A stretch of DNA of 64,000 bases, from the NCBI RefSeq assembly GCF_003334305.1, contig NZ_QOWS01000005.1; one strand, 5' to 3'. A model generated the notes under the pieces. It was not told where the DNA came from. It did no database searches and saw nothing but the letters and a program-made list of their open reading frames with translations. Both the position numbers and the translations under genes were made by a program. Source of the stretch: Escherichia coli (lineage in GTDB: Bacteria; Pseudomonadota; Gammaproteobacteria; Enterobacterales; Enterobacteriaceae). Positions 13,310-13,832 of this stretch are shown here, one piece after another. Numbering within the stretch: the stretch's first letter is position 1; each line of letters opens with the position of its first letter.

Positions 13310-13832
13310 AATCTATTCGCCTTATATATATCTGGAGGTTTTGAGGATGATGATTAATTATTATCGCCAGAACGAAATGTGCACGAAAAATTGTTATAAG
13401 AATTGTGTCACTTTTATCATTGTGATATGACCACTTCGTCATTAATCTCATGAGCGTTTAAAATACTACCGCCAAATCACGCAACGAACTTTGCTGGATT
13501 CAGTTTATGCTGCTGTAAATCCGCTCGCAGTAAACCTTTCAGACGCACCGTGATGTTATCAGTGGTTCTTTAAGCGTTTTGCTGGTGTACTCACTACAAA
13601 CGAATTGCGAATCGAATCAATGTGAAACGGAAAGGTACAATCTCCCTTTTTTTAGTGTTAACATCGCTCAACCGGGTGGAAGGTGAGAGGTTAATGTCTT
13701 TCATTTGTGTACCTGATTGCGAACCAATTTAGCATTTGTTGGCTAGATGGTTTCGCAATGAACTGTTAATAAACAAATTTTTCTTTGTATGTGATCTTTC
13801 GTGTGGGTCACCACTGCAAATAAGGATATAAA

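Follow-up and report, generated by a model that had tools for sequence, protein, structure and literature searches.

The 523-bp gap between arpB/espL1 and thrS, positions 13310-13832 of a 64,000-nucleotide stretch of Escherichia coli DNA (NCBI RefSeq assembly GCF_003334305.1, contig NZ_QOWS01000005.1; this whole stretch is referred to as the window), contains in its thrS-proximal part, 13620-13832 (213 bp), what is almost certainly the native sigma-70 promoter of thrS, followed by a 162-nt leader that carries the tRNA-mimicking translational operator of this gene. Judged by its sequence, the element is the thrS operator of E. coli K-12 itself, and with that the type specimen of an already known element, which was characterised by Springer, Romby, Ehresmann and co-workers. 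The gap has the same length as its counterpart in K-12 MG1655 (1802571-1803093) and differs from it at two bases, 13315 and 13564, both at a long distance upstream of the operator. The stretch 13565-13835, up to and including the ATG, is 100% identical to K-12 MG1655, and the alignment to K-12 that the first-pass annotation of this DNA had proposed thus shows an identical operator. This annotation, which was made from the sequence alone, had placed in the gap a thrS translational operator with two mimics of the tRNA-Thr anticodon arm, and the claim is borne out by the K-12 identity, by the predicted fold and by covariation in 38 species. The string quoted for the 3′ side of the operator, cgtgtgggtcaccactgcaaataaggatataaaATG, is found at 13800-13835. 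All features that define the E. coli-type thrS operator at the sequence level were tested and all of them were found, and nothing in the data contradicts the thrS operator reading. Moreover, a search of 5426 complete E. coli genomes found the gap region in every one, and in 5425 of them the leader has an identity of 99% or more.

The leader RNA (13671-13850) has a predicted folding energy of -50.7 kcal/mol, compared with -37.2 +/- 3.8 kcal/mol for dinucleotide shuffles (z score -3.61; none of 200 shuffles folded as well), and for 13700-13835 alone the z score against shuffles is -3.94. RNA folding, which had likewise been proposed as a check, predicts both anticodon-like stem-loops (Table 1). 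Domain 2, the essential hairpin bound by threonyl-tRNA synthetase (ThrRS), has a lower stem of 6 bp and an upper stem of 7 bp, topped by the 7-nt loop UUCGUGU (13798-13804), in which the anticodon-like CGU occupies 13800-13802, corresponding to -33 to -31 (G-32, U-31). Both the extent of domain 2, -49 to -13, and the position of the CGU match what we take to be the numbering of the thrS literature. The Shine-Dalgarno sequence (SD) does adjoin a stem, as had been noticed earlier, with TAAGGA (13821-13826) lying one base past the last stem pair of domain 2. The linker between the two hairpins (13760-13783) is unpaired in the centroid fold and forms a weak 4-bp hairpin (13764-13775) in the minimum-free-energy fold. 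Upstream of the operator, the transcript start can be placed at about 13671 (-162) from the extended -10 box, which gives the leader of 162 nt and agrees with the -162 start site that we take to be the one of the thrS literature of the 1980s. The motif AGTGTTA(A/C)CAT, together with an upstream GGTGCA...T-tract, is kept in E. coli-type leaders of 10 genera, and the sequence of the predicted 5′ leader hairpin differs between genera and has no cross-genus conservation. UAAGGA is also the SD quoted for the thrS mRNA (PMC3858243), and the role of the linker as one half of a split ribosome-binding site has been described (PMC3858243, PMC7297116, PMC11088916). Two published mutations serve as independent checks of these coordinates: the borrelidin-selected G>A exchange at K-12 position 1,802,589 (PMC13148393) falls on C13814, which belongs to the domain 2 internal loop, and an IS2 insertion at K-12 position 1,802,720, which originates from an avibactam-resistant mutant (PMC12323667), corresponds to position 13683 in the 5′ leader.

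To follow the operator beyond E. coli, one genome per species was scanned, which resulted in 80 Enterobacterales thrS loci. Domain 2 and the SD are conserved in all 80, from Escherichia to Providencia, and the stem of domain 2 carries compensatory changes (GUGAUC/GGUCAC, GUGCUC/GGGCAC, GUGAGC/GCUCAC, GUAGGC/GCUUAC and AUGCUC/GGGCAU). Within its anticodon-like triplet the G and the U are invariant in these species, and the first base is a C, or a U in Lelliottia-type leaders, where the triplet is still a threonine anticodon. The E. coli type extends over the entire leader in 38 species, and for these the E. coli structure was imposed on a MAFFT alignment. In this test 83.7% of the alignment cells are paired, versus 72.6% in column shuffles (0 of 500 reached the observed value) and 32-41% in slid controls, in which the partners were moved by 1-3 columns. 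Changes on both sides occur in 23 of the 30 pairs. The upper stem of domain 2 is paired in 100% of the cells with compensatory changes in 4 of its 7 pairs, and domain 4 has compensatory changes in 15 of its 17 pairs together with an invariant closing C-G pair. The compensatory changes in the 38 species support that both predicted operator hairpins are real. Two points weigh against this reading, namely that the lower stem of domain 4 pairs in 75% of the cells, which is partly due to alignment uncertainty, and that there is no Rfam family and hence no independent covariance model for the operator. The operator family is absent from Rfam 15, and an Rfam cmscan of 12800-14300 with E values up to 10 gave a single chance match, snoRNA-like and located in the AT-rich spacer. 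What is added by the comparison is strong backing of the published two-hairpin model by covariation across 38 species, although an Rfam family is missing. Among six divergent E. coli strains, which were also used for the polymorphism counts below, promoter and leader together have 3 variable sites in 213 bp, and 13722 A>G, which turns an A-U into a G.U pair, is the sole polymorphism seen in domain 4.

With a sequence identical to that of K-12, the operator can be assigned the mechanism established there. K-12 identity, fold, covariation and conservation boundaries are results of this analysis; ThrRS binding and the competition with the ribosome come from the literature, and ThrRS binding and repression at the leader of the window are presumed from the work on the identical K-12 sequence. 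In the predicted fold of the leader RNA, two hairpins mimic the tRNA-Thr anticodon arm and are joined by an A/U-rich single strand; the ribosome would need both the 3′ part of this linker and the SD with the AUG as the two halves of a split binding site. In excess over uncharged tRNA-Thr, free ThrRS dimer would bind domains 2 and 4 via its anticodon-binding domains, and the N-terminal part of the bound enzyme would then clash with the platform of the 30S subunit, so that initiation of thrS translation is blocked. As tRNA-Thr competes with the operator for ThrRS, it would relieve the repression, and ThrRS synthesis would thereby be matched to tRNA availability. The entries 1QF6 and 1KOG of the PDB are for E. 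coli ThrRS, and 1KOG is presumably the complex of ThrRS with the operator, holding operator domain 2. The individual steps, i.e., binding of ThrRS, competition with the ribosome and relief by tRNA-Thr, have been described (PMC11088916, PMC7373986, PMC9976931, PMC3858243, PMC7297116), as has the steric exclusion of the 30S subunit by bound ThrRS (PMC7373986). Furthermore, control passes to methionyl-tRNA synthetase when the anticodon-like triplet is changed to the one of methionine (PMC11088916, PMC7373986, PMC9976931, PMC3858243, PMC7297116). The operator is a textbook case of translational autoregulation by molecular mimicry and agrees with that of K-12 base for base, so that it matters little for the window.

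As an alternative, the leader might control thrS by transcription attenuation, either through a T-box as in the thrS gene of Bacillus or through a leader peptide rich in threonine codons, comparable to those of thr and pheST. It is generally known that Gram-positive thrS genes use T-boxes, and the pheST operon in the neighbourhood does use a leader peptide, with an annotated Phe leader and Rfam matches to it. However, the T-box covariance model RF00230 has no match in 12800-14300 at E values up to 10, a range in which no Rfam family was found at all except the chance snoRNA match, and the short open reading frames (ORFs) of the leader have no threonine run. A terminator scan of 13100-14000 gave zero terminator-like sites, so that a leader-peptide attenuator lacks both its ORF and its terminator here. 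Because there is no terminator between 13671 and 13832, attenuation by either route is excluded and in practice refuted, and the probability that we leave to it is close to nil.

The tRNA-mimicking operator and its promoter occupy only one part of the gap. The first-pass annotation had assumed that arpB shares its regulatory space with thrS, which comes down to an additional upstream promoter at most, as the gap is cleanly modular and the arpB-side spacer (13310-13619) does not overlap the operator. The thrS promoter and operator start where homology across genera sets in, which is only at about 13617-13620 (seen with Salmonella arizonae and E. albertii), and the spacer has no homology in the 80 other Enterobacterales loci. 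A blastn search of the spacer against plasmids returned four chromosome-sized E. coli records alone, and no mobile source was identified. Within E. coli, 26 variable sites were counted in its 310 bp, which is about six times the frequency in promoter and leader (3 in 213 bp) and similar to the first 300 bp of arpB with 34 variable sites; the polymorphism includes indels at 13443 and 13460. At least 99% identity of the spacer to that of the window is reached in 2883 of the 5426 genomes, and 601 have an identity of 90-95%. A natural insertion of IS1 is tolerated at about 13452. Folding of 13310-13670 is no better than that of shuffles on either strand (z scores of -0.4 to +0.6), and for this reason the idea that the upstream half of the gap holds a structured RNA was rejected. 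The same upstream half had been described as AT-rich, which is right for about 13310-13440 but not for 13440-13619: the first 130 bp (13310-13439) have a G+C content of 32.3% and 13440-13619 one of 42.2%, with 37.9% for the whole gap versus 49.1% for the window. The view that arpB was acquired agrees with its distribution, as among 82 Enterobacterales loci it is confined to those of E. coli, and the ancestral gene order is ydiY, yniD, thrS. The spacer will have arrived together with arpB/espL1 or after its insertion and is not a part of the operator, and it probably holds the promoter or promoters of arpB. The 523-bp gap is thereby mapped into a conserved thrS control region of 213 bp and 310 bp of lineage-specific filler next to an acquired effector gene.

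It is conceivable that this arpB-proximal part nevertheless regulates thrS as well, either by a second promoter at 13436-13464, which would give a leader of about 360 nt, or by silencing proteins that spread from the AT-rich acquired DNA. Binding of RNA polymerase holoenzyme in the thrS/arpB spacer was found by genomic SELEX (systematic evolution of ligands by exponential enrichment), and the sequence-predicted promoters listed there are TCGTCA-17-TAAAAT on the thrS side and ATGATG-16-TATAAC on the arpB side (PMC3946193). Both of these sites are present in the window (Table 1), and the G+C content of 32% in the first 130 bp of the gap would suit silencing. The divergent predicted promoters in 13393-13464 are the sole hint that thrS might receive transcription from the acquired side. 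The SELEX hexamers are, however, predictions, and our scan of the region shows no excess of promoter-like sites over shuffles (3 vs. 2.5 +/- 1.5). Moreover, all other genera regulate thrS without this spacer, which in E. coli is the most polymorphic part of the locus, tolerates insertion of IS1 and of a prophage, and is without structure. We therefore regard regulation of thrS from here as rather unlikely; a contribution of the spacer by an upstream promoter or by silencing is possible but unsupported, and the odds are clearly against it. If it were true, the acquired arpB and the essential thrS would indeed have control elements in common. That the spacer hides an unannotated gene for a small RNA or a small protein is still far less probable. 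Several ORFs of 20-59 codons can be found in it, but the missing conservation outside E. coli, the high polymorphism with the two indels inside E. coli, a folding energy at the level of shuffles on both strands, and the lack of any Rfam match or RefSeq annotation in the spacer all speak against such a gene.

The native control region, i.e., promoter and operator, turned out to exist in two versions among the Enterobacterales. In about half of the 80 species the leader is identical or nearly identical to that of E. coli from about -51 on, comprising domain 2 and the SD, and is unalignable with it upstream of this position. This second type, here called class B in distinction from the E. coli type (class A), is present in Klebsiella, Enterobacter, Citrobacter, Kluyvera, Serratia, Pectobacterium, Providencia and others. 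Its upstream part is predicted to form a long-range helix with a three-way junction, which encloses a variable hairpin and a 6-bp hairpin and is followed by the A/U linker, domain 2 and SD that E. coli has as well. The loop of the 6-bp hairpin comprises 8 nt of the form A-R-R-G-U-R-N-A, of which the G and the U are invariant. When applied to 19 Enterobacteriaceae sequences, the class B structure is paired in 85.0% of the cells, compared with 73.8% in shuffles and 31-50% in slid controls, and double changes are present in 14 of 22 pairs; RNAalifold alone recovers the short hairpin only, and the long-range helix was taken from folds of single sequences before it was put to this test. R1, a covariance model of the class B structure, matched 28 loci, always just 5′ of thrS, and had no match in the window or in any E. 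coli-type locus. Rfam searches of a Klebsiella class B leader and of seven whole related loci returned just Phe leaders and a Yersinia small RNA.

Both classes share domain 2, the SD, the A/U linker and the position before thrS, and both have a -10 box of like form, GTGT(T)AnnAT, as well as GTAC motifs; upstream of about -51, class B has instead of the alignable E. coli sequence the long-range helix with its two hairpins. The GTAC motifs stand at fixed positions, about -127 and -115, in both classes, with 66 occurrences against 23 +/- 4.5 in shuffles (80-nt window, 81 sequences), and usually occur as UGUGUAC(C/A) repeated in tandem every 12 nt. Of the two copies, E. coli has retained the first alone (13709-13712, within TTGTGTACC at 13705-13713), and the second copy has diverged to TTGCGAACC at 13717-13725. 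Because of the shared form of the -10 box and the GTAC motifs at fixed positions, classes A and B are probably diverged relatives and not unrelated inventions.

The two classes are distributed patchily within genera. Congeners of different class have thrS genes with 86-96% and domains 2 with 88-100% identity, and their upstream modules reach about 57-65%, which means that these are unalignable. In Atlantibacter subterranea and A. hermannii, for instance, the identity is 96% in thrS, 100% in -50 to -1, and 57% in -200 to -51, and similar splits within the genus were found in Phytobacter, Superficieibacter, Cedecea and Serratia. Patchiness of this kind points to replacement, for which the 5′ edge of domain 2 would be the breakpoint. 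The contrast between the classes, with about 57-65% identity and unalignable sequence, goes beyond neutral species divergence. The low identity between the leaders of E. coli and E. albertii (63-77% upstream of -41 vs. 93-100% downstream) had also been considered as proof of replacement, and was rejected as such, as neutral divergence between species could reach that level. Two strains labelled E. coli deviate from the window in this region. One of them, from strain SCPM-O-B-8794 (L003; NZ_JAATUR010000048.1, 700-1146), has the order ydiY-yniD-thrS without arpB and a Citrobacter-like class B leader; its homology to the window stops at 11294 and resumes at 13782, thrS-infC being about 97% and ydiY about 88.5% identical. 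Its class B upstream sequence was found in 0 of the 5426 complete E. coli genomes, and to judge from these identities it probably represents another Escherichia lineage and not a typical E. coli. The other is E. coli FG92-1 (NZ_CP142677.1, 2100339-2123506; L087, L088), in which arpB and thrS are separated by IS1, a lambdoid prophage segment and a P-loop NTPase gene. Upstream of domain 2 this strain carries an E. albertii-like class A allele (89.9% identity), with domain 2 and the SD unchanged. These changes correspond to about 13452 and to 13620-13781 of the window and were found in a single one of the 5426 complete genomes. Insertions and leader replacement have repeatedly had their breakpoint just upstream of domain 2.

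We tentatively propose that the distal two-thirds of the thrS control region, from 13620 to about 13781 with promoter, 5′ hairpin, domain 4 and linker, are a replaceable cassette of two types, and that domain 2 and the SD are the fixed core; that this is both correct and new appears possible but doubtful. Under this proposal the switch point would always be the 5′ edge of domain 2, and congeners with 90-96% identical thrS genes do carry different versions. A dimorphism of classes A and B was not found in the searchable literature, in which coverage of the relevant older papers is thin, so that its novelty is uncertain. If the proposal were true and if the version with the three-way junction bound ThrRS differently or sensed something else, thrS control in Klebsiella, Enterobacter, Citrobacter and Serratia would depart from the E. 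coli paradigm, and what E. coli has would then be one of two dimorphic alleles and not the ancestral state. With regard to the control of aminoacyl-tRNA synthetases in species other than E. coli, the recurrent breakpoint could merit a comparative study.

Further observations concern the surroundings of the operator. Just upstream of the thrS -10 box, 13628-13653 contain a weak inverted repeat followed by seven T (GGAAAGG-N9-CCUUUUU), which is also conserved, and pairs better, in Lelliottia, Salmonella and Cedecea. The repeat could be the relic terminator of an ancestral upstream gene or simply the -35 and spacer region, and is taken here as part of the promoter block, since its pairing in E. 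coli is weak and the -35 region is expected to overlap with it. In Salmonella enterica subsp. arizonae (L004, 945-2635) the place of ydiY/yniD directly before thrS is taken by umuD-umuC, and in E. albertii by about 1.1 kb in which long ORFs are lacking. Insertions thus seem to recur at this site, upstream of the thrS promoter. The arpB/espL1 gene has a G+C content of 38.9%. RefSeq names the counterpart of 11411-13309 espL1 in strains of the enterohaemorrhagic E. coli type and arpB (pseudogene) in K-12. The gene is annotated as frameshifted in strain E2865, the intergenic region of which is 100% identical to that of the window, and in phylogroup B2-like strains it is shortened to about 1 kb, with frameshifts. 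Downstream, thrS ends with TAA at 15759-15761, and 3 nt further on the ATT start codon of infC follows at 15765. The ATT start of infC is a known unusual initiation codon that serves the autoregulation of initiation factor IF3.

Table 1. Features of the arpB/espL1-thrS region in the window, and leaders of other loci (last two rows) used for comparison
Feature	Position	Strand	Basis or remark
arpB / espL1, ShET2/EspL2-family type III effector gene	11411..13309	-	intact 632-aa ORF, divergent from thrS; ORF list and RefSeq annotation of matching strains
E. coli-specific arpB-side spacer, 310 bp	13310..13619	.	fast-evolving, without conserved structure
Predicted sigma-70 promoter towards arpB, ATGATA-16-TATAAC	13393..13420	-	1 mismatch to SELEX-listed hexamers
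Predicted sigma-70 promoter towards thrS, TCGTCA-17-TAAAAT	13436..13464	+	consensus scan; about 370 nt upstream of ATG
Conserved thrS promoter block	13620..13670	+	homology with Salmonella arizonae and E. albertii starts here
-35-like GTACAA (putative)	13635-13640	+	in thrS promoter block; -35 assignment inferred
T-tract	13647-13653	+	in thrS promoter block
Extended -10 TGtTAACAT	13656-13664	+	in thrS promoter block
5′ leader hairpin, predicted	13673..13715	+	minimum-free-energy fold
Operator domain 4, long hairpin	13716..13759	+	fold; one bulged U, 8-nt loop AUUUGUUG
Domain 4 loop AUUUGUUG	13734-13741	+	anticodon-like UGU at 13737-13739
Operator domain 3, A/U-rich linker	13760..13783	+	19 of 24 bases A/U; upstream half of split ribosome-binding site
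Operator domain 2, essential ThrRS-binding hairpin	13784..13820 (-49..-13)	+	fold -11.1 kcal/mol, z -2.77
Operator domain 1	13821..13835	+	SD UAAGGA 13821-13826, 6-nt spacer, AUG 13833-13835
thrS coding sequence, threonine--tRNA ligase, 642 aa	13833..15761	+	ORF, RefSeq annotation, full-length match to PDB 1QF6
Class B leaders matched by R1	L005 2836-2945; L009 2835-2945; L014 2835-2944; and 25 further loci
A/B contrast pairs	about -200..-51		L013 vs L014; L012 vs L047; L019 vs L023; L030/L032 vs L033; L052 vs L043

Compared with known systems, the element is the same as the thrS operator of K-12: the layout in four domains, the CGU at -33 to -31 and the UAAGGA SD are alike, and there is no difference within the operator. 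The K-12 locus differs in that arpB is a pseudogene there, whereas it is intact in the window. Among autogenous operators with a split ribosome-binding site, that of rpmE, which encodes bL31, is alike in that the protein represses its own mRNA via a structure resembling its normal RNA partner, and a stable hairpin parts the A/U-rich enhancer from the SD (PMC7297116, PMC7373986). The tRNA-like element in the mRNA of the yeast aspartyl-tRNA synthetase likewise brings about repression of its own mRNA through a mimic of the normal RNA partner. However, in both cases proteins, structures and phylogenetic ranges are different from those of thrS, and there is no sequence relationship. The T-boxes of thrS and thrZ of Bacillus subtilis regulate the gene of the same enzyme in response to tRNA-Thr, as does the E. 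coli operator. A T-box binds the uncharged tRNA directly and acts on transcription termination. In contrast, in the thrS operator of E. coli the mRNA itself imitates the tRNA, the ligand is the enzyme, and control is exerted at translation initiation.

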